Source: Candidatus Gastranaerophilales bacterium
GTDB taxonomy: Bacteria; Cyanobacteriota; Vampirovibrionia; Gastranaerophilales; Gastranaerophilaceae
Assembly: GCA_944326515.1 (NCBI GenBank)
Contig: CALVEI010000001.1
Span: 73,604-137,603 of the forward strand
DNA length: 64,000 bases
Reading direction: 5' to 3'
Shown here piece by piece: positions 4,171 through 40,237 of the stretch. The translations under genes and the position numbers were made by a program. Position 1 is the first letter of the stretch. Every line of letters begins with the position of its first letter. The notes under the pieces are model-generated. The model was not told the origin of the DNA. It did not search any database and worked only from the letters and a program-made list of their open reading frames with translations.

Positions 4171-5159
4171 TAATCTTCGTCATCCTCGTCTTTGATTCTT
4201 CTTTTAGAAGGTCTTGCTGCTCTTTGAGCTAGTTTTTCAGCAGCTATTTTACCTGCATAGTTTCTTTTGTTTATATCTTTATACAATTCTGTACAACAAA
4301 GGCTTCTTAACGGTAATGTGAAACCTGTTACTGCAAATGATACAACTGCAAGCACAATATGTTTTGCTATATCGTAGCTTTTTAATGTCAGTGGAATATG
4401 GTTTTGTGCCAGTATAGCGTTAAAATCATCTAAAGGTAAAAGTCTTATATATTGTTCAACAGGGTAAGAGAAAAAACCGCCTAAATCACCGACTTCAAAA
4501 CCCCAACTGATAAGACCTGGCACGAGCCAATAAGTTGTTATGCCAAGTATTATCAAAAGTGATGCGGTTTTCCAAAAATTGAATTTTACATATCCGATAG
4601 CTGTTCTTATTGCGTCAAAGGCACTTTTGTCTTCTTCAATGGCAAAAACCTGAAAACTCAATGCAAGATACACAAATACTACAGCCAAAAGTCCCCACAA
4701 AAGCGGGAATGATAAAATCAAATATATTATAGAAATAAATAACAAAAATAGTATGTAAGAACCTGCTCTGCGTCTTATCAACTCTGTATGTACGCTTGTG
4801 TCTTCTATGTTACCGCCTTCTAAAAGTGAGCTTGCCATAGAGTTTAAAGCTGCAAGCGCAACAAGATAATCCCAAAAAGCCTTACAAAAGATAAAGAACC
4901 CGGGTAATGTCAATACAATAAGCATTAAAAATACCAAAGGTATATTATCAAAAATAGGGCTTTTATTGGTTAATGTTGACACGTGTAGTGTGAAAATATA
5001 AGAAGCAAAAAATATTAACGAGATTCCGACAATTTGTCCAAATATAGGGAAGGCCATATACTTAAAAAACTTTTCAAAGTTTAAAAAGTATAGTTTTACT
5101 CCGTTTAAAAATATTTTCAAAACGCTTGCAAAAGCCGAATCTTTTTTAGTTTTTGCCAT
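4170..5159 (-). CDS. Hypothetical polytopic membrane protein with a basic/acidic C-terminal tail
   Basis: 329 aa with several long hydrophobic segments. Translationally coupled to the downstream zinc-ribbon ORF. Confidence 0.6.
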   Translation of the reverse strand: MAKTKKDSAFASVLKIFLNGVKLYFLNFEKFFKYMAFPIFGQIVGISLIFFASYIFTLHVSTLTNKSPIFDNIPLVFLMLIVLTLPGFFIFCKAFWDYLVALAALNSMASSLLEGGNIEDTSVHTELIRRRAGSYILFLLFISIIYLILSFPLLWGLLAVVFVYLALSFQVFAIEEDKSAFDAIRTAIGYVKFNFWKTASLLIILGITTYWLVPGLISWGFEVGDLGGFFSYPVEQYIRLLPLDDFNAILAQNHIPLTLKSYDIAKHIVLAVVSFAVTGFTLPLRSLCCTELYKDINKRNYAGKIAAEKLAQRAARPSKRRIKDEDDED

Positions 5160-9118: not shown

Positions 9119-10423
9119 TTATAATTTAGGTATTGTTATTTCAAAAGTAGTACCGTTTTCATCAGAGCTTATGAGTTTTAAATCTCCGTATTGCTCTTGC
9201 ATTGCTTCTTTTGAAATATACAGTCCGAGTCCGCTGCCTGTAATTTTTGATGTGTAACCTTCTTCAAAAACTTTTGAACATTTGTCTTTTTCTATACCAC
9301 AGCCGTTATCAGTGATTAAAATTTTGAGCATATTGTCTGCTGTTTCTTCGGTTTTTATTTTTATTGTTCCGTTCTCTTTTACCGCGTCTATTGCGTTATA
9401 GAAAAGATTTATCATTACGTTTAACAGTTTGTTTTCATCGGCTAAGATATTGCCGTTGTATTGGTTTGAAACTTCAAATTTTACGCCTGTTTGTTGTGCT
9501 TTTGCGTTTACAAGGTTTATGGCATTTTGCAATATTTGCGCAAAATTAAGTGTTTCAAGTTTGACACTTTGGATTGTTCTAAGCTCTGTTAAAAGAACCT
9601 CGATAGCATCTTTGGATTTTTTTATACTTGAAATTGCGTTAGTTATTGAGTCATGGAGTTCTGCATTTGGAACAATTTCAAGTCTTTTTTCCATTATTTT
9701 GGAATACAAATCGATGATAGAAAGGTGGTTTTTTATATCGTGAGAGATTACTTTTGCTTTTGTTGATATGTATTCATATTTTTTGATAATATCATCGCTT
9801 TCCCCTAACAAGCCTACTTCTGCTTGGGTCATGGAGGCTTCTTCGACAAAAGAATCTGCAAAGTTGATGAACTTGTGAACAGCTTGGTTTAAAAGTTCAT
9901 TGCTTCTTCTTTCAGGGGTGTATTCTTGAATGTATCTTGTTAAATCAATTTTAGAGTTTTCAGAGATTATTTGAATAACGTTGTTTACATCTCTTGAGTT
10001 TAAAAGGTAGTACAAACAAGATGTTTCTTTGATTGTTTCTGTAGAATAATCCCATAACATGCAGGCAGAATATCTTGGAGAAAGTAATACAAGAAATTCT
10101 GTTTGTCCCCAGATGTCATCTTTTGTGAGATTTTCGCCTTTTGTAACATCGTCAAAGGAGTAAACTTCTGCGTTTGTGAATTCTAGTCTTTTTAAAACTC
10201 CGTCAAGTTCTTTTGTATCAAAGAGTCTAATTAAAACAACTGCTTTTTGAGTTTGGGCTTCTAAAAGAGGTTCTAATGCAAAGCGAAACAAACCCTTGAT
10301 GGTTTGTTTGTTGACAGGTTTTGTCTGTCCTAAATATATCAAATCTTTTAAAAGATTTTTTTGTCTAAAGTTTGCTCCGCTCATTTTTCTCTCTTGAATT
10401 TCCTTTGCGCTCAGACCTGTCAT
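9119..10423 (-). CDS. Cytoplasmic sensor histidine kinase with an uncharacterised N-terminal sensor domain. The true start may be the second Met at 10384.
   Basis: H-box SHDIKNHLSII, N-box LINLFYNAIDA, G-boxes DNGCGI and GSGLGL. No TM segments. The first 13 codons overlap repeat-like sequence. Confidence 0.85.
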   Translation of the reverse strand: MTGLSAKEIQERKMSGANFRQKNLLKDLIYLGQTKPVNKQTIKGLFRFALEPLLEAQTQKAVVLIRLFDTKELDGVLKRLEFTNAEVYSFDDVTKGENLTKDDIWGQTEFLVLLSPRYSACMLWDYSTETIKETSCLYYLLNSRDVNNVIQIISENSKIDLTRYIQEYTPERRSNELLNQAVHKFINFADSFVEEASMTQAEVGLLGESDDIIKKYEYISTKAKVISHDIKNHLSIIDLYSKIMEKRLEIVPNAELHDSITNAISSIKKSKDAIEVLLTELRTIQSVKLETLNFAQILQNAINLVNAKAQQTGVKFEVSNQYNGNILADENKLLNVMINLFYNAIDAVKENGTIKIKTEETADNMLKILITDNGCGIEKDKCSKVFEEGYTSKITGSGLGLYISKEAMQEQYGDLKLISSDENGTTFEITIPKL

Positions 10424-10820
10424 TCACTTCGCTGTCGCTTCTGTTCATTTCGGTCTTCGCTTTCCGGATTTTATCCGTTCGGAAATTCGCTTACCATTAT
10501 TTAATCTGCTGGCGTTACGCCCGCTTGTAGTTTTTTCTTCGGACAAGTCGTTCATTCACTGTTGTCCTCATTACTTCGGCGTTCCTTCGCTTTGCTCAGT
10601 CAGCCTACACAAATCTGCTTCTTAGATTACCGGCGTTCGGAGAAAGCGTGGTTTCTCCTCACATGGGGCGTTTCGTTTCACTTCAGCCCCGCACGGAATC
10701 CGCTTCTTGGATTATTGTTCCATTCGGACAACTCGTTCATTACGCTTTCGCTGTCATTCACTATTGTCCTCATTACTTCGGCGTTCCTTCGCTTTGCTCA
10801 GTCAGCCTACACAAAATCCG
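10424..10820 (-). repeat. Mosaic of GC-rich repeat units filling the RR-HK intergenic region
   Basis: Direct repeats at 10538-10615 and 10723-10818 are near-identical, and the second carries a 17-nt internal insertion. Several short hairpins are present (GGAGAAA/TTTCTCC, TTTCCG/CGGAAA, GGGGC/GCCCC). The minus strand is purine-rich and shares GAGCAAAGCGA-type motifs with the 14339 element. Confidence 0.75.
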
Positions 10821-11531
10821 CTATATAGCGATTTTGACTTTTCTTCTGTTCAAAAATCCGTTGTTCAATGCGTACAACACAGCTTGTGTTCTATCATTAA
10901 CCTGCAATTTTTGGAAGATATTGTTTACGTGTGTTTTTACTGTTGTTTCTGAAATAAACAGTTTTTGTGCCACACCTTTGTAGGTTATGCCTTGTGTTAA
11001 CAAATCAAGAACTTCTTCTTCTCTTTGTGTAAGGTAGTTAAGAAGATTTTCTTCATCTGCTGTATTTTCTGCTTCTTCTTTGAAAGATTTTTGGAAATAT
11101 TCGAAAAATCTTGAGGACAAAGTTGCAGGTAAGTAAATTTTGCCTGCTGCAACTTCGTCTATTGCGTAGATGAGTTGAGCAGAGGCCATTGTTTTTAAGA
11201 TATAGCCTTTTGCACCAATCTTCATAGCTCTGAAAATTAAGTCAGGATCATCATAGCCTGTCAAAGCGATAATACGCACTCCCAAATCCAGTTTTTCAAT
11301 CTCTGCTATCGCAGTTAGACCGTCTTTTTCAGGCATGTTGATATCCATTAACACGATTTCGGGACGATACTTCTTAATAAGACTGATTGCAACACTTGCG
11401 CTTGTTGCTGTTGCCACAACATCGAAATCGCTCTCAATTTCAATCAATTCCTTGATACCTGACAAATGATCGTAATTGTCATCTACTAGAATGATTCTGG
11501 CTTTCTTCTTAAATTCAAGACCTCTTCTCAT
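10821..11531 (-). CDS. NarL/LuxR-family response regulator (REC + HTH)
   Basis: REC domain (ILVDDN...VLMDINMPEKDG...K at the usual position) and C-terminal LTQREEEVLDLLTQGITYKGVAQKLFISETTVKTHV. Confidence 0.9.
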   Translation of the reverse strand: MRRGLEFKKKARIILVDDNYDHLSGIKELIEIESDFDVVATATSASVAISLIKKYRPEIVLMDINMPEKDGLTAIAEIEKLDLGVRIIALTGYDDPDLIFRAMKIGAKGYILKTMASAQLIYAIDEVAAGKIYLPATLSSRFFEYFQKSFKEEAENTADEENLLNYLTQREEEVLDLLTQGITYKGVAQKLFISETTVKTHVNNIFQKLQVNDRTQAVLYALNNGFLNRRKVKIAI

Positions 11532-11817
11532 CTACTCCCCCCAAGATTTTATTTTTAAATTGTTATTAATCGTGTGATTGTATTATTTACACATGGTATA
11601 TTACCTCTAAATGTAGTAGGCTCTCATCGGCTATGGGGTCGAAATAGCTACAAAAACGCATCTTCTTAATGATTTAGACCACTTGGTCTATGGATGGGGC
11701 TTTTTGCTTACAGTGAAAAGGATTTCAGGATTATTTAAAAATAATTTATTAGTATTACTTTTCAAAGTTGAAGTAATAGATTTAAATTAGTCATAATGTA
11801 TGATAAATTATTGTCTA

Positions 11818-12169
11818 GGAGCAGTCGGATAATCGCGCAGATGAAAAACTCTGTGAGGAAAGTCCGGGCACCCAAGGGCAGACCGCCTGATAACGTCAGG
11901 TGCGGGCGACCGTGAGGATAGTGCCACAGAAATGCAGACTGCCGATGATTCCTGACTTTGTCAGTGAAAACAGGCGATGGTGCAACGGCGAGGTAAGAGC
12001 TCACCGGCAAGGCTGAGAGGTCTTGGCCAGGTAAACCCCGGTCGGGTGCAAGGTCAACTAAAAGGTTAAGGTGACCCGCCGTCTTTTGACAGACCGCTTG
12101 AGCTTGCAGGCAACTGTAAGTCGAGACAGATGATTATCTAAAAACAGAACCCGGCTTATGAGCTGCTCC
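11818..12169 (+). ncRNA. rnpB: RNase P RNA, bacterial type A
   Basis: Conserved GAGGAAAGTCCGGGC (P4 5' strand) and ACAGAACCCGGCTTA (P4 3' strand). P1 pairs GGAGCAG with CTGCTCC. The region is GC-rich relative to its flanks. Confidence 0.9.
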
Positions 12170-12269
12170 TTTTTATTTTTGTAAAAGCGGTTTCGCTTGT
12201 AGAAGTGGTTTGGACTTGTTTATTGCACAAATCCATCAGGTGTTTCGAGTTAGTTGACAATATGAAATA

Positions 12270-14150: not shown

Positions 14151-14338
14151 TTTAAATCCTTATATTTTTGACAGTATATATAATACTTGGAAATTTTAGT
14201 ATATGCAACAAATTTAACTATTTGGGAATTGTTACCTATTGTAAAAATGGAATATTTGACGTAGCAAAAAATATTTTGTTTGAACTTAATTTTGTAGGAC
14301 AATAAAATCATGGTCTTATAAATTGTCCGAAAAAAATT

Positions 14339-14443
14339 CGTGATAAGGAGCAAAGCGACGTGAACGAATTTTTTGAGTGTCACCTTGAAAAGGTGAGCAG
14401 TGGCGGCTCGAAGGTTCGAAGCGACAACTGCGACACTAGATTA
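14339..14443 (+). repeat. GC/purine-rich leader repeat element ending in CGACACTAGATT (copy A)
   Basis: GATAAGGA..GTGAACGAATTTTTTGA..AAGGTGAGC..CTGCGACACTAGATT. It ends 28 nt before the ATG at 14472. Confidence 0.65.
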
Positions 14444-14471
14444 AATTACTTACTATATTAGGGAGCTTTCT

Positions 14472-15986
14472 ATGGATATTAAATCAATCAGTACGCTAAC
14501 TTTGCCTCAAGCAGGTGTATATTCTGCTGCACCAAAACCTCAAAACACTACGCCTGTGGGTCAGCCGATGCAAGAAAGTACAAACCACAAGACTAACAAA
14601 AATTTTAAAAAGAAACTCCCTTATATTGCAGGTGCAATAGTTTTGGCTGGTTTAGGCATATATTTTACAAGAGGCAAGTCTTCTAAAAATGTTATTAATA
14701 ACGAAAACCTTGATAAATTAGGCGAAAACGTTGTTGCTAAACTCCAAAAAGAAGAAGAAAGACTTTTGGAAGCTGTAATACCAGAAAAGCCTAATAAATT
14801 AGGTGAAAAGGTAGTTGATCAAATTAAAAAAGAAGATACACTTTCTGAAGCATTAACACCAGGAAAAATTGAAGTACCTAAACAAAAAAATAAAACCAGT
14901 TTAAAAGATTTGATGAAAATTGATAAAAATGATCCTGATATAGAAGACGCTGTTGAAGTTATTGAAGATGAAATCAGTGAAAATTTGCCATCATTACCTG
15001 AAAATATTTGTATAGGTTTTGAAAATAATCAACCTGTTTTTGAAAAATATGCGCATGTTGTTGAAGAGGAAGTTCAACCTGCAATCAGCGCATTTGATGA
15101 AGCTAAAAAATCGATAAATTTTTTAAATGACGAAATTATCGCAAAAATAGTTGAAAACAAGAAAAAAGACGCGCAAGAGGTAAATCGTATTATCTCGGAA
15201 AATACAAAAGACGGTCACATAAACTTTAATATTATGCGTAAAGTTGCTCATGATTTTTCTACAGACGAAGCAAATAGAGGTGCCGACAGATTTCATCAAG
15301 CTGCTGACGTTTTAGAACAATCTTATTTAAAAGAGTTTATTAAAACTGAAAATGGTGAAACAAAAGGTATTTATAATCTTTTTGATGCTATGAAAACAGA
15401 TACCGAGTTGTTTTCAATTTATACTCAAAGGCCTATGGAAGAAGCTGCTAACAGGTTGAATTATCTTCGTCATAACGAGCTTATAAACTGCAAAGCTCCT
15501 AAAGATATGACACCTGATGAATTTTTTGAAAAAAGTTTTGAAAAACTTGTAGAAAAATTTCAGTTCAAAAAATATAATGACAAATTTAAAGTTGATGGCA
15601 ATTTTATCGATGTTATGCAAAAAAACCAAAATTTAAGAAAAGAAACAAATGCAATTTTGGATTCTGTAACAGGTGAATATGGTACGGTTGACCTTGTTAA
15701 ACTTAAATCAATAATAGCAAATGAATCAGATGCTCATAAAGCCGCTAATTTGATGGAAAAAGCTCTGCTCAAAAACTATAGCGGAATTTCTTCTGTTGAA
15801 GAGTTTCAAGATGCTTTTGTTTCTAACAAGACGCTTTTTGATATCTACAAAAAAATGCCTAAAGAACAAGCTACTCAAAGAATTAACGCATTCAGACGTT
15901 TTGAAATAACACCACTTTTCAAAGACGCTGATGAGTCAAAAACTTTGGCATTCTTTAACGAAGCTGTTAAAAAGTTAGACGCTTAA
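14472..15986 (+). CDS. Hypothetical membrane-anchored protein with two internally repeated C-terminal modules
   Basis: 504 aa with one TM segment (LPYIAGAIVLAGLGIYF). The repeated modules are ...TELFSIYTQRPMEEAANRLNYLRHNELI and ...KTLFDIYKKMPKEQATQRINAFRRFEIT. Confidence 0.6.
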   Translation: MDIKSISTLTLPQAGVYSAAPKPQNTTPVGQPMQESTNHKTNKNFKKKLPYIAGAIVLAGLGIYFTRGKSSKNVINNENLDKLGENVVAKLQKEEERLLEAVIPEKPNKLGEKVVDQIKKEDTLSEALTPGKIEVPKQKNKTSLKDLMKIDKNDPDIEDAVEVIEDEISENLPSLPENICIGFENNQPVFEKYAHVVEEEVQPAISAFDEAKKSINFLNDEIIAKIVENKKKDAQEVNRIISENTKDGHINFNIMRKVAHDFSTDEANRGADRFHQAADVLEQSYLKEFIKTENGETKGIYNLFDAMKTDTELFSIYTQRPMEEAANRLNYLRHNELINCKAPKDMTPDEFFEKSFEKLVEKFQFKKYNDKFKVDGNFIDVMQKNQNLRKETNAILDSVTGEYGTVDLVKLKSIIANESDAHKAANLMEKALLKNYSGISSVEEFQDAFVSNKTLFDIYKKMPKEQATQRINAFRRFEITPLFKDADESKTLAFFNEAVKKLDA

Positions 15987-18868: not shown

Positions 18869-20569
18869 ATGTTTAAAAAAATACTTATATCACTGAGTTT
18901 GTTAATTTTTGCCATAAATATTAATGCCGAAGTTCAGGCTGTACCTGCGTTAAAAGGCACTATTGTTAAAGTTGGCATAAGTAATCAAAATTTTTCAGAT
19001 TATTATTTTAACAAAACAAAGTTAACAGCAACGGATTCATTTACACTTACTGACAAATCAACAAACACTGTTATTGGTGATTTTGGTGCTGAAGAAGTTG
19101 TTGATATAGTTATTAAAAATAATCTTTTTACGGTTATGCAAGATTCAACAGAAATTGCAAATTGTATTAAGGGACCTGTTGTTATCTCTTCAGATAACGG
19201 ATATGTATCGGTTGCTGGGCTAAAAAGAGCAGGCAAACCCGCATTGTATAGAGGCACAATACAGATAACAAAAGTGCCTAAAAAAGACAATCTGTTCAAT
19301 GTAATAAATGTTTTAGATGTGGAATCTTATCTTAGAGGCGTTGTTCCAAACGAAATGCCTGTAAGATTTGGCATAGAAGCTTTGAAAGCTCAGGCTGTGC
19401 TTGCAAGAAATTATGTGTTAAAACCTAAAGAAAAAAATTATCATAACTTTGATGTTTGCGACTCTGTAGCTTGTCAGGTTTATTTTGGAGCAAACACAGA
19501 ACACGAATTATCTGATAAAGCAGTTTTTGAGACAGAAAATATTGTTGCAATGCATAATGATGAGTTGATTTTGGCATTGTACAGTTCAACAGCCGGCGGA
19601 TATACAGAAAGTTATGAAAATGCTTTTTCAACGGATATGGCTAACGGTGTAAGAATATTCCCCGGAGTACCAAAGCCGTTTTTAAAAGGAGTTCCGGATA
19701 ACAAAAAAACGCCTGTATTGAATAACGAAAAAGAAGCAAGAAAGTTTTATACTTCTACTCCCGATACTTTTGACAATGATTCACCATATTTCAGATGGAC
19801 AAGAGAATGGGAACAAAAAGAACTTGAAAATGTTTTAAAAAGCACACTTAAAGTTCAATCTTCAACAGGATTTGTTAAGCCAAAACTTGATAATCCAAAT
19901 GATTTTGGAACATTAAAAGATATAAAAATTCTAAAACGTGGTGTGTCGGGCAAGGCTATGTCTATTGATATAGTTACTGACAAAAATACTTTTAATGTTC
20001 AAAAAGAACTTGTTATAAGAAGAACATTCAAAAAAGACAATAAAGCGATGCCTTCGGCAAATGTAGTCTTTGATATCGAAAAAATTAAGCAGGATAAAAA
20101 TGACAAAAAGACAGATTCTGCAATAAAAATAACAGCTTATGGCGGAGGTTACGGTCACGGTGTTGGTATGAGCCAGTTTGGTGCAGGCAGTATGAATAAA
20201 AAAGGTTATTCATACTCGGATATTATTCAGCACTATTTTACAGATACAGCCATAACAACAATGCCTGTAACATTGTCGTGTGCGAGCGGTAAAGATACTG
20301 CAGTACAAAAATTTTATTTAACCGATAAAGATAAAAAAGCAAAGTTAGTTGTAGAAAACAAGTTTCAGTTCACTACAATGACAATGGTTCTAAACGGTCA
20401 AGAGTTCAAGCTTGAGCTTGCACCTAAATTGTTTAAACCCGAAAAATTTGACCTTTCTCCATACCTTGTAGAAGGAGAAAATACAATTACATATTTGCTG
20501 CCATACTCTGCAGCGCATAAAAAACCGGTGAGATTATACGTAGAATTAAAAGGTACAGAAAATGAATAA
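18869..20569 (+). CDS. SpoIID/LytB-domain protein with signal peptide and a C-terminal extension
   Basis: The internal start MFKKILISLSLLIFAININA is a signal peptide. SpoIID motifs YLRGVVPNEMP, ALKAQAVLARNY, CDSVACQVY and GHGVGMSQFGA are present. Confidence 0.8.
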   Translation: MFKKILISLSLLIFAININAEVQAVPALKGTIVKVGISNQNFSDYYFNKTKLTATDSFTLTDKSTNTVIGDFGAEEVVDIVIKNNLFTVMQDSTEIANCIKGPVVISSDNGYVSVAGLKRAGKPALYRGTIQITKVPKKDNLFNVINVLDVESYLRGVVPNEMPVRFGIEALKAQAVLARNYVLKPKEKNYHNFDVCDSVACQVYFGANTEHELSDKAVFETENIVAMHNDELILALYSSTAGGYTESYENAFSTDMANGVRIFPGVPKPFLKGVPDNKKTPVLNNEKEARKFYTSTPDTFDNDSPYFRWTREWEQKELENVLKSTLKVQSSTGFVKPKLDNPNDFGTLKDIKILKRGVSGKAMSIDIVTDKNTFNVQKELVIRRTFKKDNKAMPSANVVFDIEKIKQDKNDKKTDSAIKITAYGGGYGHGVGMSQFGAGSMNKKGYSYSDIIQHYFTDTAITTMPVTLSCASGKDTAVQKFYLTDKDKKAKLVVENKFQFTTMTMVLNGQEFKLELAPKLFKPEKFDLSPYLVEGENTITYLLPYSAAHKKPVRLYVELKGTENE

Positions 20570-22184
20570 CAGTGAGAGCAGTGCGCAGACAACAAATGTT
20601 TCTAAAACTCAGAGTTTGCTAAAAGCTGCGTGGATAATAGCTTTTGTAACTATAATCAGTAAGTTGATAGGCTTTTTAAGAGATGTAGTTATTGCAAATT
20701 TCTATGGTGCGGGTATGGTTTCCGACGCTTATTTTTATGCCTATCAAATACCTGCAATATCAATTATTTTGCTTGGTGGTATAGGCGGGCCATTCCACAG
20801 TGCGGTCGTTTCCGTGTTTTCAAAACTTATACCAAACCTTGATGAAAAAGCACCCGATAACGTAAACAAGCTGTTCAATACGTTTTTGACAAGTTCATTT
20901 TTAGTATTTTTGGTTTTAGGTGTACTGGTTTTTGTATTTTCTGATGTAATTATGAAAATAATTATCGCAAACGGTTCTCCTGAATTGATAAGACTTGCAA
21001 GCATTCACTTAAAAATAATGGCACCTGTTTTAACTGTTGGTGGTGTTGTTGGTATTTATTACGGGATTTTGATTGTTTATAAAGAATTTTTAATCCCTAA
21101 TATCTCACCTATTTTGATGAGTGTTGCAATTATTGCAATTATATCTCTTGTTCATAACGATAATTCAGGTGTAGTGCTTGCTGCTGCTACAACTGTTGGT
21201 GCGTTGTGTCAGTTTGTTTATCAACTGCCAAAACTTAAGCAGTTGGGCTTTAAGTTCAAACCAAATCTTGAGGTCTTTAATAACCCTCAGTACAAAAGTA
21301 TCCTTGAGCTTTTGTTCCCTGCAATTTTAAGCTCTACAGTCGGACAAGTTTATATTTATGTAGATATGTTTTTTGCTTCGCAATTGCAAGAAGGTGCTTG
21401 GTCTGCAATCGGTTATGCAAACAGGCTGTTTCAGTTCCCTGTAGGGGTTTTGGTTACAGCGTTTTTAGTTCCGTTGTTCCCTATATTTTCAAAACTTGTT
21501 GGAGAAAAAGACTACGACAATATCAGATATTATTTTAACAAGGGTGTAGGTTTGCTCAATTTTGTTGCTTTCCCAATCCTTGTATTGATTATTTTGCTTT
21601 CTACAAACGCAATTCAGTTGATTTTCCAAAGAGGTGCGTTTAACGAAGTAGCAACGATGATGGTGTCTGAAGCATTATGTTATTTGTCAATTTCTATAAT
21701 CTTTTATGTATTTAGAGATTCTATTACAAGAGTGTTCTATGCGTTTAATGATTCTAGAACACCGTTTCTTGTTGCGTTATCGTCTATAATTATAAAATTT
21801 ATTTTGAACTTTTTGTTTGTAAAACATCTTGGTATAGGCGGTATCACACTTTCAACTTCTTTTGTAACGTTGATAAACGGTTTTTGGTTAGGGCTTTTAA
21901 TCAAGAAAAAAATGAATATGGATTACGGTATTTATTTTAAAAACCTCTTTAAAATGGCAGTAATCTCAATAGCTACATACTACGTATGTTTGGGCGCATA
22001 CAAATTGTGGGATAAATACTTTGAACCTACACAGTTCTTGTTAATCGTAAAAATTATTTTGATAACACTTTTATGCGGAATTGTTTACAGTATTTTTGCT
22101 GCGATAGTAAGAATCCCATACGTGTTTGAGTTATACGGAAGACTAAAAGGTAAGTTGATGAAATTGTCCGATAAAAATTTATAA
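20562..22184 (+). CDS. murJ: Lipid II flippase MurJ (MviN)
   Basis: 540 aa, polytopic. N-terminus SKLIGFLRDVVIANFYGAGMVSDAYFYAYQIP is typical of MurJ. Confidence 0.9.
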   Translation: MNNSESSAQTTNVSKTQSLLKAAWIIAFVTIISKLIGFLRDVVIANFYGAGMVSDAYFYAYQIPAISIILLGGIGGPFHSAVVSVFSKLIPNLDEKAPDNVNKLFNTFLTSSFLVFLVLGVLVFVFSDVIMKIIIANGSPELIRLASIHLKIMAPVLTVGGVVGIYYGILIVYKEFLIPNISPILMSVAIIAIISLVHNDNSGVVLAAATTVGALCQFVYQLPKLKQLGFKFKPNLEVFNNPQYKSILELLFPAILSSTVGQVYIYVDMFFASQLQEGAWSAIGYANRLFQFPVGVLVTAFLVPLFPIFSKLVGEKDYDNIRYYFNKGVGLLNFVAFPILVLIILLSTNAIQLIFQRGAFNEVATMMVSEALCYLSISIIFYVFRDSITRVFYAFNDSRTPFLVALSSIIIKFILNFLFVKHLGIGGITLSTSFVTLINGFWLGLLIKKKMNMDYGIYFKNLFKMAVISIATYYVCLGAYKLWDKYFEPTQFLLIVKIILITLLCGIVYSIFAAIVRIPYVFELYGRLKGKLMKLSDKNL

Positions 22185-22198
22185 AAAGGGGTAAAGTT

Positions 22199-22282
22199 AC
22201 GTGAATGCATTTTTTGAGGACTTATAGAAAAGGTGAGCAGGTGACGGCTCGAAGGCTCGAGTCGGCACTGCGACACTAGATT
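22199..22282 (+). repeat. GC/purine-rich leader repeat element ending in CGACACTAGATT (copy B)
   Basis: GTGAATGCATTTTTTGA..AAGGTGAGCAGG..CTGCGACACTAGATT. About 85-90% identical by eye to copy A over the 3' ~56 nt. It ends 15 nt before the ATG at 22298. Confidence 0.65.
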
Positions 22283-22297
22283 TTAAAGGATAAATTT

Positions 22298-37353: not shown

Positions 37354-37580
37354 TTTGGTCATTCCCTTCTGTATGATTTGCTTAGTAGTTAAATTTTAGA
37401 CTGCTGAAAAATTATTATCAAGTTTTTTTGTGGTAATATTAAAGTGTGTGAAGGGCATTTGTTGCTTTCAAATGGTGATAAAAGCCCGCCCCCCTTCTAA
37501 ATCGCCTTTTAACGCTTTTAAACATGTGTTGCTTTTTCGTTGTCAGGCGTGACGAAGAACCATAATGAGGATTTAATACT

Positions 37581-39425: not shown

Positions 39426-39881
39426 TTACTCAACAATAAGTTTTTTATTGTTGTTTTCTTCTTTTTTCATTTTTGGTGCTTCTATTCTTAAAACACCGTG
39501 TTCAAGTTTTGCTTTTGTATTTTCTGTATCAATGTCTTCAGAGAAGTAAACTGTTCTTGAAAATTCACCGTATTGGAATTCTGATTTTTTATATGTTTTT
39601 GTGTTTTCTTCTTTTTCTTCTTCTTTTTTTGCATTGATTGTTATGTAAGATTTATCCATATCTATATCTAAATCTTCTTTTTTAACTCCGGGAAGTTCTG
39701 CTTTTATTTCAAAGCGGTCTTCTTTTTCTTTGATTTCTACAGGCATCATCAATTTATCTGCATCATCGGCATATCTGTAATCAGGATATAGATTGTCGAA
39801 GTTTTTGCTTAAAATTGAACTGATTTCGTCGTTAACTGATTTCAAAAAGCTGTCAGGTGTTTTCTTTATTAAAAATCTCAT
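39426..39881 (-). CDS. Small heat-shock protein, Hsp20/alpha-crystallin family
   Basis: Alpha-crystallin domain: MPVEIKEKEDRFEIKAELPGVKKEDLDIDM...GVLRIEAPK. Confidence 0.9.
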   Translation of the reverse strand: MRFLIKKTPDSFLKSVNDEISSILSKNFDNLYPDYRYADDADKLMMPVEIKEKEDRFEIKAELPGVKKEDLDIDMDKSYITINAKKEEEKEENTKTYKKSEFQYGEFSRTVYFSEDIDTENTKAKLEHGVLRIEAPKMKKEENNNKKLIVE

Positions 39882-39902
39882 AATTAACTCCTTTCAATTT
39901 TT

Positions 39903-40033
39903 AATCTAGTGTCGTCTTTTCAATGTGTCGCTCACCTACACTTAACTTCGTTAAGTTTTGGAGACAGGCTCACCAGCATCGCCACAGCTCTGCTGTTCAC
40001 TTTGTCAAAAAATTTGCTCACGTTCCTTATCGC
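39903..40033 (-). repeat. GC/purine-rich leader repeat element ending in CGACACTAGATT (copy C, long variant) in the hsp20 5' region
   Basis: Minus strand reads GCGATAAGGAACGTGAGCAAATTTTTTGA...ACTTAACGAAGTTAAGT hairpin...GTAGGTGAGCGACAC...GACGACACTAGATT. It ends about 20 nt before the hsp20 ATG. Confidence 0.65.
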
Positions 40034-40237
40034 AAATTTTTCTCGAACATTTTAATCTTCATTTCCTTCAACACCTACATTATTGCTCTGATTTTTATTT
40101 ACCTTTCGTTTTTTAACAAAAATTTAACAATTAAGATTTTTGTAAAATTCTGTTAAAGATGTACAATGTTTTGAAAAAAGTTTTAAAAATATGTTTTTAA
40201 ATAGTTAAAGCCATCAAAGAAGTGTAAAGAAGAATTC

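Follow-up and report, generated by a model that had tools for sequence, protein, structure and literature searches.

A probable lineage-specific family of small structured interspersed repeats in Gastranaerophilales, often placed directly before Shine-Dalgarno sequences

Three genes within a 64,000 nt stretch of Candidatus Gastranaerophilales bacterium (contig CALVEI010000001.1, positions 73,604 to 137,603; this whole stretch is called the window) are preceded by a 12-mer, CGACACTAGATT, which raises the question of what kind of sequence it belongs to. The 12-mer occurs exactly at 14431-14442 (+), 22271-22282 (+), and 39903-39914 (−) and has no fourth site in the window; arithmetic gives a chance expectation of ~0.008 exact occurrences in 128 kb of two-strand sequence. 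The original prediction had described three copies that share ordered blocks, and these blocks do exist. The answer developed here is that the 12-mer probably ends the members of a lineage-specific family of small, non-autonomous, structured interspersed repeats in Gastranaerophilales (Melainabacteria/Vampirovibrionia). The family is undescribed, and it represents a familiar type of small mobile repeat of bacteria and is no regulator dedicated to particular genes.

Each occurrence of the 12-mer terminates a longer homologous element, and a covariance model of the family (R1) delimited the three copies as listed in Table 1. With filters off, R1 found no further canonical copy in the window better than E=0.4. 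The spans proposed originally, i.e. 14339-14443, 22199-22282, and 39903-40033, named the right loci, but the extents had to be revised because the homology begins earlier, at TGTCCGA. Copy 1 is 96-97% identical to two copies of the metagenome-assembled genome (MAG) BRZ_MM bin19 (L015 and L107; L numbers denote fetched loci). Copy 2 is 78% identical to copy 1, and its first block is degenerate (AAAAAGGGG in place of GATAAGGA). Copy 3 carries a 73-nt module X after its first hairpin and has lost the canonical GGTGAGC box together with the second hairpin (P3, see below). The stretch AGGTGAGC of copy 3 is a part of module X, which is also present in L021, L034, L045, L089, L106, and L115. The shared blocks described earlier are to this extent altered in copies 2 and 3.

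Each copy has the same orientation as the gene that follows, and the 12-mer ends 29, 15, and 21 nt before the ATG in copies 1-3, respectively. Measured from the 3′ end of the element, 25 nt separate copy 1 from the ATG at 14472, and 17 nt separate copy 3 from the hsp20 ATG at 39881. The three genes encode a 504-aa hypothetical protein, a Sua5/YciO/YrdC protein (PF01300), and an HSP20 protein (PF00011), in agreement with the prediction that the downstream genes are unrelated, and the 44 downstream proteins described below agree. The arrangement around copy 2 is unchanged in 5-7 conspecific contigs, and no strain-level polymorphism was found at copies 2 and 3, the arrangement being identical in all conspecific contigs. 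The 5′ part of copy 2 (22165-22184) supplies the last seven codons and the stop codon (22182-22184) of the murJ-like open reading frame (ORF; 20562-22184), so that the C-terminus encoded by this essential-type gene has been reshaped by the insertion.

The canonical unit is 115-125 nt long and reaches up to ~250 nt with optional modules. Four conserved boxes, in 5′ to 3′ order TGTCCGAG, GAGTG, GAAAAGGTGAGC, and GCGACACTAGATTARAT, close two hairpins, P1 and P3. The complete order is a loose flank, TGTCCGAG, P1, GAGTGRCA, yTTGAAAAGGTGAGC, P3, and GCGACACTAGATTA(G/A)AT, and in the canonical unit P1 is formed by an A-run/T-run stem with a GATAAG...GTGA loop. RNAalifold predicted four helices, with P0 (TGTCC/GTGRCA) enclosing P1 and P2 (GGTG.GC/GC..CACT) enclosing P3. 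In P0 of copy 1, the 5′ box is predicted to pair with GTGTCA at 14377-14382 (94% paired, one compensatory change), while in P2 the GGTG and GC of the GAAAAGGTGAGC region pair with GC and CACT of the 3′ box. About 45 nucleotides at unpaired or junction positions are conserved. The four bases past the 12-mer are conserved as well (A in 97%, G/A in 87%, A in 83%, and T in 77%), and the sequence is random thereafter.

Table 1. Coordinates of the three copies, of the parts of copy 1, and of a composite repeat-module region in the window
Feature	Position	Strand	Evidence or remark
Copy 1, defining, complete canonical element	14324..14446	+	R1 107.3 bits, E=6e-23, full length
5′ box of copy 1, TGTCCGAA (family consensus TGTCCGAG)	14324..14331	+	Invariant or nearly so in 29 aligned copies
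Hairpin P1 of copy 1, arms AAAAATTCGT and ACGAATTTTT, loop GATAAGG...GTGA	14332..14373	+	7/9 pairs changed on both sides between genomes; 95% of cells paired
GAGTG box, linker, and GAAAAGGTGAGC box of copy 1	14374..14398	+	GAAAAGGTGAGC invariant in 29/29 aligned copies
Hairpin P3 of copy 1, long, GC-rich, with conserved internal G-G mismatch	14399..14429	+	Compensatory changes in 7/7 variable pairs
3′ box of copy 1, GCGACACTAGATTAAAT (consensus GCGACACTAGATTARAT), 3′ end of the element	14430..14446	+	Mutated forms among copies found without the pattern
Copy 2, older, partly degenerate; murJ-like ORF, then element, then tsaC/Sua5-like gene (ATG 22298)	22165..22286	+	R1 81.9 bits
Copy 3, mosaic variant: 5′ box, P1, module X (39934-40006), GAGCGACAC, 3′ box	39899..40049	−	R1 43.6 bits
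Composite GC/purine-rich repeat-module region, 440 nt, non-coding, upstream of a minus-strand gene (probable ATG near 10384)	10390..10830	−	Not detected by R1

The fold was evaluated in a MAFFT alignment of 29 distinct copies. Of the cells at predicted pairs, 92.8% were paired, compared with 36-51% when the partners were slid by 1-3 columns, and double changes were present in 126 cells, compared with 5-19 after sliding. Compensatory changes occurred in 16 of the 28 pairs, and the observed covariation score was reached by none of 500 shuffles. The signal is carried by P1 and P3 (pair counts in Table 1), whereas P2 is uninformative because it is invariant. Folding z-scores of single sequences were unimpressive, with −0.5 for copy 1 and −1.1 for copy 3, so the structural evidence rests on covariation.

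The fold differs between the two strands. For 47 unique copies, the mean fold energy was −39.5 kcal/mol for the sense strand and −27.2 kcal/mol for the antisense strand, with the sense value being lower in 46 of the 47, and the sense strands contained 165 G-U pairs versus 25 in the antisense strands. This strand specificity indicates that the selected structure belongs to a single strand, i.e. RNA or top-strand DNA, and goes beyond a plain DNA palindrome. The earlier view of a real, oriented repeat family and not of repeat debris is borne out.

To determine the distribution, one genome per GTDB species was scanned with the pattern GTGAGC-N(12-40)-CGACACTAGATT. More than 117 stretches were retrieved. 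Among the matches listed, ~100 belong to roughly 34 Gastranaerophilales-type species genomes, with several per genome, and about eleven stand alone within genes of unrelated bacteria that are rich in GC. All other listed stretches come from AT-rich MAGs that are labelled Candidatus Gastranaerophilales or are known or likely bins of this group, i.e. “Brachyspira sp. CAG:484”, UMGS1001, RGIG6874, and mislabelled Muribaculaceae and Gammaproteobacteria bins. When R1 was applied to 100 loci (731 kb), it identified 122 copies, ~20 of them outside the search pattern. The density in these loci and in the window (3 per 64 kb) is about one copy per 20-35 kb; Gastranaerophilales genomes have a size of ~2 Mb, which leads to an estimate of ~50-100 copies per genome. 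Scanning relatives with a pattern and a covariance model, as proposed earlier, thus placed the family in at least 34 or so species-level MAGs.

Several patterns point to mobility. Copies at unrelated loci of one genome have a mean identity of 96%, compared with 73% between genomes, where the differences are compensatory. Point-mutated, AT-decayed, internally deleted, mosaic, and nested copies are present, as are the optional modules X and Y. The genes immediately after the copies encode 44 proteins that are unrelated, save one orthologous proS pair in sister genomes; among these genes are murA, ileS, ftsH, smc, recF, rpsT, aroC, ssb, tsf, rplO, proS, hsp20, and tsaC. At proS, the element is located directly before the Shine-Dalgarno motif in L028 and L106, once in canonical form and once with two extra modules, while L128-131 lack it, and more distant relatives have a short plain leader without the element. 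The proS site of the window (ProS 95% identical, flanks align) contains an unrelated, unique 124-nt segment instead. At ftsH, L066 has the element and L023 does not. A metagenome scan with ProS retrieved relatives of ≤70% identity, all without the element, which represent an outgroup and not a clean empty site. The family is therefore short, non-coding, multi-copy, and insertion-polymorphic, in accordance with the miniature element that had been proposed.

The 124-nt segment of the window (37446-37569) is richer in GC and extends from the rpmE-proS promoter region to the proS Shine-Dalgarno motif, exactly the position of the repeat in L028 and L106. Neither the fetched loci nor Rfam gave a match to it, and its folding z-score is only −0.9.

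In two copies, L092 6044-6170 and L042 1103-1218, the P1 loop is present as the exact reverse complement, implying a flip at the DNA level between the inverted arms. In addition, a hairpin repeat of ~45 nt, CTCTGCCGAA...TGAGAGG (CTCTGCCGAAyAAAAG...CTTTTrTGAGAGG), is nested in the P1 loop or between modules in both orientations (L065 1251-1389; L039, L044, L077, L108; L013, L033, L050). These genomes contain it as a second small mobile repeat.

The placement relative to genes was tabulated with ORFs of at least 80 aa as gene calls and the elements masked. Considering the upstream and the downstream gene, both are co-oriented with the element in 42 cases and both lie on the opposite strand in 15, while 23 contexts are divergent and 15 convergent. 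In tandem contexts, the ratio is thus 42 sense to 15 antisense (p=5e-4). Of 107 copies, 40 have their 3′ end within 50 nt of a start codon in the same orientation, most often at 11-36 nt, in contrast to 6 of 106 copies that have their 5′ end within 50 nt of a divergent start (Fisher p=1e-8 versus the 3′ end). Near gene ends, both orientations occur (25 vs. 20), and ~37% of the copies point at gene ends or lie antisense. The proposed check of distance and orientation, performed on ~118 copies, therefore revealed a strong enrichment of the 3′ end just upstream of co-oriented starts, and what had been described as a fixed position and orientation before start codons is a strong polar tendency that is not universal.

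In L066, an extended −10 box, TGATATAAT, lies 11 nt before the start of the element, which stops at the Shine-Dalgarno motif; the −10 box is kept as TGTTATAAT in the empty L023. Because the element of L066 is placed after this box and before the Shine-Dalgarno motif, it is probably a co-transcribed structured leader. Copy 1 is preceded at a distance of 15 nt by a TTGAAC-17-TAAAAT match, and copy 2 fills an operon spacer. Judged from these arrangements in the sequence, copies 1-3 are most likely co-transcribed, tolerated 5′ leader insertions, which possibly modulate the downstream mRNA. Native leaders are short in these genomes, so any insertion into a leader ends beside the Shine-Dalgarno motif.

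The transcribed cis-acting leader of the original prediction is consequently retained as a leader, for which the geometry of L066 and L023 fits, and abandoned as a dedicated regulator. A cis-regulatory RNA (riboswitch, thermometer, or protein-binding) would put the set of genes under one signal, and it would explain the strong co-varying fold of the sense strand with its ~45 conserved unpaired or junction nucleotides as well as the location immediately 5′ of the Shine-Dalgarno motif in the 40 of 107 copies. We regard it as highly improbable, because the downstream genes are functionally unrelated and have orthologues without the element in relatives, near-identity among the copies of one genome goes along with a lack of conservation at orthologous positions, more than a third of the copies (the ~37% given above) face gene ends or are antisense, and the hairpin loops are variable, including the two inverted P1 loops.

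The polarity may be linked to the properties of the antisense strand. In every copy, the antisense strand has a stable P2/P3 hairpin followed by an invariant GCUCACC-UUUU tail with 4-6 U in the next 8 nt, whereas in the sense strand the P2/P3 hairpin is followed by AGAUUAGAU. The antisense strand also carries the anti-Shine-Dalgarno-like CACCUUUU. Antisense copies would be excluded from leaders because a GC-rich hairpin followed by CACC-UUUU resembles a terminator and an anti-Shine-Dalgarno sequence. We hypothesize that the terminator-like hairpin with its U tail and the anti-Shine-Dalgarno-like stretch would both be harmful between a promoter and a start codon and harmless or even useful past gene ends.

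The 5′ junction has a composition of its own. Of 87 unique junctions, 42 (48%) have a TAnnnT hexamer whose final T is the first base of the element, compared with ~3-4 at other positions. The 5′ flank has an A at −4 in 89%, an A at −3 in 70%, and TA at −5/−4 in 48% of the cases, and is looser than a fixed target of 4-5 nt. We read the junction hexamer as an A/T-rich target preference, TAWWT, with a weak junction promoter being possible. If the element were a promoter-carrying mobile cassette, the hexamer would drive the element and the gene, or an outward −10 box would be provided by TAGATT(AGAT) at the other end. The T-A---T skeleton of TAGATT and its distance of 15-40 nt to start codons would fit the latter, and no other promoter was predicted upstream of copy 3. 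Yet at a distance of 16-18 nt from the junction hexamer, the mean match to a −35 box was 2.74 of 6 positions, compared with 2.4-2.8 at shifted positions, and TGn was present in 1 of 43 cases. The hexamer varies among young copies of one genome and does not depend on the context. TAGATT has neither a conserved −35 box, its −35 position falling into the variable P3 arm, nor a TGn extension, and the scanner called no promoter-like site inside the elements. Many copies lie in operon spacers or are aimed at gene ends, and L066 and L023 have the extended −10 box of the host upstream of the element. A promoter cassette is therefore improbable, and neither an internal promoter nor TAGATT as a −10 box, both of which had been envisaged, is supported.

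The strand-specific conserved structure and the junction hexamer would also be compatible with a multicopy family of independently transcribed small-RNA genes, some of which would end at downstream terminators; terminator-like hairpins follow several copies (L001, L018, L034, L080, L104). These terminators also serve convergent genes, and most copies are followed by a Shine-Dalgarno motif and an ATG within 11-36 nt, without a terminator. Helix P0 uses the first five bases of the element, which would be upstream of any transcription start driven from the junction, and promoter features beyond the hexamer are lacking. Small-RNA genes are thus very unlikely.

As to the mode of movement, terminal inverted repeats are absent, as the 5′ TGTCCGAG and the 3′ ...CTAGATTARAT are not inverted copies, and the sole inverted likeness is a subterminal match of 6 of 8 positions between TGTCCGAG and TGTCGCAG. 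A target duplication was not detected either, with no excess of flank matches for k=4-6 in 52 offset combinations of 82 unique copies. The GC skew of the 8-kb loci was uninformative as to a replication-strand bias, being positive for 70 of 118. In the search for adjacent transposases, 710 ORFs of the loci were clustered all-against-all, and Pfam assigned the ten largest clusters to housekeeping families alone. The search for an autonomous long version yielded solely a chance pairing of boxes around a ferritin gene and an ORF of unknown function in L101.

A REPIN- or REP-like element that is moved by a REP-associated tyrosine transposase (RAYT) or another single-strand DNA transposase of the IS200/IS605 type (HUH) would be expected to lack terminal inverted repeats and target duplications, and to have strand-specific hairpins with G-T wobbles. 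The loose 5′ target TAWWT resembles the 3′ end TARAT, and conserved TGTC(C/G) boxes lie beside both hairpins in inverted arrangement: TGTCC-GAG-P1 in sense and TGTCG-C-P3 in antisense orientation resemble a doublet of tetranucleotide and palindrome. A bona fide RAYT gene is encoded in L087, a contig of the element-rich MAG BRZ_BG bin84 (NF047646, 144.5 bits with a cut-off of 80; Pfam Y1_Tnp). Close homologues with 62-100% identity are common, and one of them, L224, lies in RGIG6874, which itself bears the element, so that both of the two element-bearing genomes examined have a RAYT gene.

The RAYT loci L208-L224 are, however, flanked by a different, classical REP of 24 nt, i.e. GTAG or GTCG followed by the hairpin GTTGGGCATACCTGCCCAAC, with up to six copies around the RAYT gene of L222. 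None of the 10 RAYT loci has the ~120-nt element beside the gene, and R1 found none within 2-10 kb in most RAYT loci. The REP tetranucleotide changes with the RAYT type, whereas the TGTCC and GCGACA boxes of the element are constant and do not co-vary with the local GTAG or GTCG. The element has two hairpins that do not resemble one another, and a 5′ flank that is only loosely conserved. A tblastn search with IS200 and IS608 TnpA queries gave one weak match, which proved to be the RAYT of L087, and with these queries no TnpA or TnpB was detected in the 0.95 Mb sampled. No ORF of an autonomous insertion sequence with the ends of the element was found beside copies in the ~1 Mb covered. RAYT was rejected as the mobiliser, as the genes carry their own REP and show neither adjacency to nor co-variation with the element. 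A mechanism with RAYT or another HUH transposase would nevertheless agree with the lack of inverted repeats and duplications and with the one-strand hairpins, and we consider it conceivable and rather doubtful.

RAYT genes with their REPs were noted at L212 1955/2253/2546, L215 1955/2259, L222 9512-11180, and L087 63-617. In addition, these genes have an inverted REP hairpin inside their own coding sequence (codons ..NVGQVCPTD..), which co-varies with the upstream copy between genomes and may represent autoregulation or self-targeting. In L220, a GTAG-type REP at 4196 lies ~20 nt upstream of the recA start codon, so a classical REP also occurs immediately before a start codon.

Comparison with described repeats places the behaviour of the element closest to BOX, BIME/REP, ERIC, and Correia elements (PMC3049150 for comparison). 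The BOX elements of pneumococci (boxA-boxB-boxC, together with RUP and SPRITE; Croucher et al. 2011) have been shown experimentally to be transcribed (PMC3049150). Shared features are the length of 100-250 nt, the modular and mosaic structure, ~100 copies per genome, extensive predicted RNA structure, the lack of an own transposase, the location mostly upstream of or between genes, and the ability to alter 3′ ends of genes (PMC3049150); co-transcription, established for BOX, is indirectly deduced for the present element. In contrast to it, BOX elements have terminal inverted repeats similar to those of insertion sequences. They have no sequence relationship to it and belong to another phylum, and the strand specificity of the fold and the nearly complete restriction to the sense orientation in leaders are more marked in the present family.

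With REP, BIME, and REPIN sequences, the element shares the extragenic location, hairpin formation, high copy number, mosaic structure, lack of target duplication, and a short box by each hairpin. It differs as an asymmetric unit of two hairpins, whose long single-stranded boxes are invariant and which is enriched before starts, whereas REP sequences are concentrated between convergent genes, and the RAYT genes found here are flanked by their own REP. ERIC/IRU and Correia elements are also ~100-150 nt long and near genes; they are transcribed within mRNAs, and their effects on transcripts depend on orientation (RNase E or RNase III sites, created promoters). Unlike the present element, they are imperfect palindromes with terminal inverted repeats and, for Correia, a TA duplication. 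PATEs, which are derived from IS200/IS605 and have TnpB omega-RNA right ends, also have one-strand subterminal hairpins without inverted repeats or duplication, insert 3′ of a short motif, and have a structured right end followed by a variable flank. For the present element, the search gave no autonomous insertion sequence with the same ends, the hairpins of the two sides differ from each other, and the target motif is loose. Classical miniature inverted-repeat transposable elements are likewise short, non-coding, and multi-copy with insertion polymorphism, and differ from the element in having terminal inverted repeats and target duplication.

Database searches retrieved no known family. Rfam 15 at gathering thresholds gave RNase P RNA alone for the whole window and nothing on the element, chance matches alone for copy 1 at E≤10, and no hit overlapping the element for eight loci from other genomes at E≤1, which agrees with the earlier statement that it is no known RNA family. 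Rfam models of the IS605-orfB or omega-RNA type did not match the element. A phage or viral origin was also considered and rejected: a pattern scan of IMG/VR gave two chance matches inside coding sequence, and blastn against GenBank phages gave none. A literature search for repeats or RNA motifs in Melainabacteria/Gastranaerophilales found nothing relevant.

Taken together, the population patterns describe a mobile repeat with the following course. The element multiplies within genomes and lands after an A/T-rich, TAWWT-like sequence, without inverted repeats or target duplication. Copies decay, recombine into mosaics, and host nested insertions, and the hairpin sequences drift between genomes with the pairing kept. 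The surviving copies are polar. Sense copies lie in probably transcribed spacers between a promoter or transcription start, or a prior cistron, and the next Shine-Dalgarno motif, and copies past gene ends have either orientation. Leader copies would be tolerated and may modulate the stability, processing, or translation of the mRNA, as BOX, ERIC, REP, and Correia elements do. The conserved boxes and the one-strand hairpins are most likely recognised by a mobilising activity, which plausibly acts on single-stranded DNA.

Several points weigh against this interpretation. Because the search pattern for the loci prescribed GTGAGC and the 12-mer, the conservation of these boxes is partly circular. 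The gene calls behind the placement counts are crude. Presence and absence were compared at two orthologous sites, neither of which is a clean empty site, owing to the 124-nt segment at proS and a junction in L023 that differs by ~10 nt. Neither a transposase nor an autonomous version was found, so that we infer mobility from population patterns alone. Instead of a target preference, the junction TAnnnT could reflect a promoter at this site. Transcription through the element is deduced from geometry and matches to consensus promoters. For an intrinsic terminator in antisense orientation, a simple terminator scanner made no call, and the CACC-UUUU tail is the sole support.

A more unusual reading is that the element is primarily RNA, i.e. 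a portable, self-propagating 5′-UTR (untranslated region) module. Its core, UGUCCGAG / GAGUG / GAAAAGGUGAGC / GCGACACUAGAUUARAU, would bind a trans-acting factor or be catalytic or involved in processing, and it would perhaps spread via an intermediate that is RNA or single-stranded, in a way for which no precedent among bacterial repeats has been described. We assign it a slim chance. If it were true, dozens of unrelated housekeeping genes per genome would be under one post-transcriptional control or processing step.

Other repeats were encountered in the window. The composite region listed in Table 1 contains a direct repeat of 62 nt (10552-10613 and 10754-10815, 98% identical) and a mini-copy of ~50 nt with the family ends TTGTCCGAAG...AGCAGATTAAAT (about 10547-10497), and its modules are common to L095, L113, L069, L020, and L019. 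A further small repeat, GGACTTGTTTATTGCACAAATCC...GTTGACAATATGAAAT, lies at 12195-12265 just past the 3′ end of a CorC-like gene and also occurs at L066 870-927 and at two sites in L077; it may be a terminator-type repeat family. The RNase P RNA of the window is of the bacterial class A type (11817-12174, +, 243 bits).

Gastranaerophilales are uncultured, non-photosynthetic gut relatives of cyanobacteria with small, compact genomes. For such genomes, perhaps 50-100 leaders and spacers occupied by the probable mobile repeat would represent a sizeable unannotated share of the non-coding sequence. The element breaks assemblies and shifts gene ends, as seen for murJ here, and it probably shapes mRNA structure at many housekeeping genes. 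With its strong covariation, one-strand fold, and polar placement, the family offers a clean natural system for repeat mobilisation without inverted repeats and for filtering by transcription and translation signals. A covariance model would improve the annotation of MAGs and prevent false calls of novel riboswitches.

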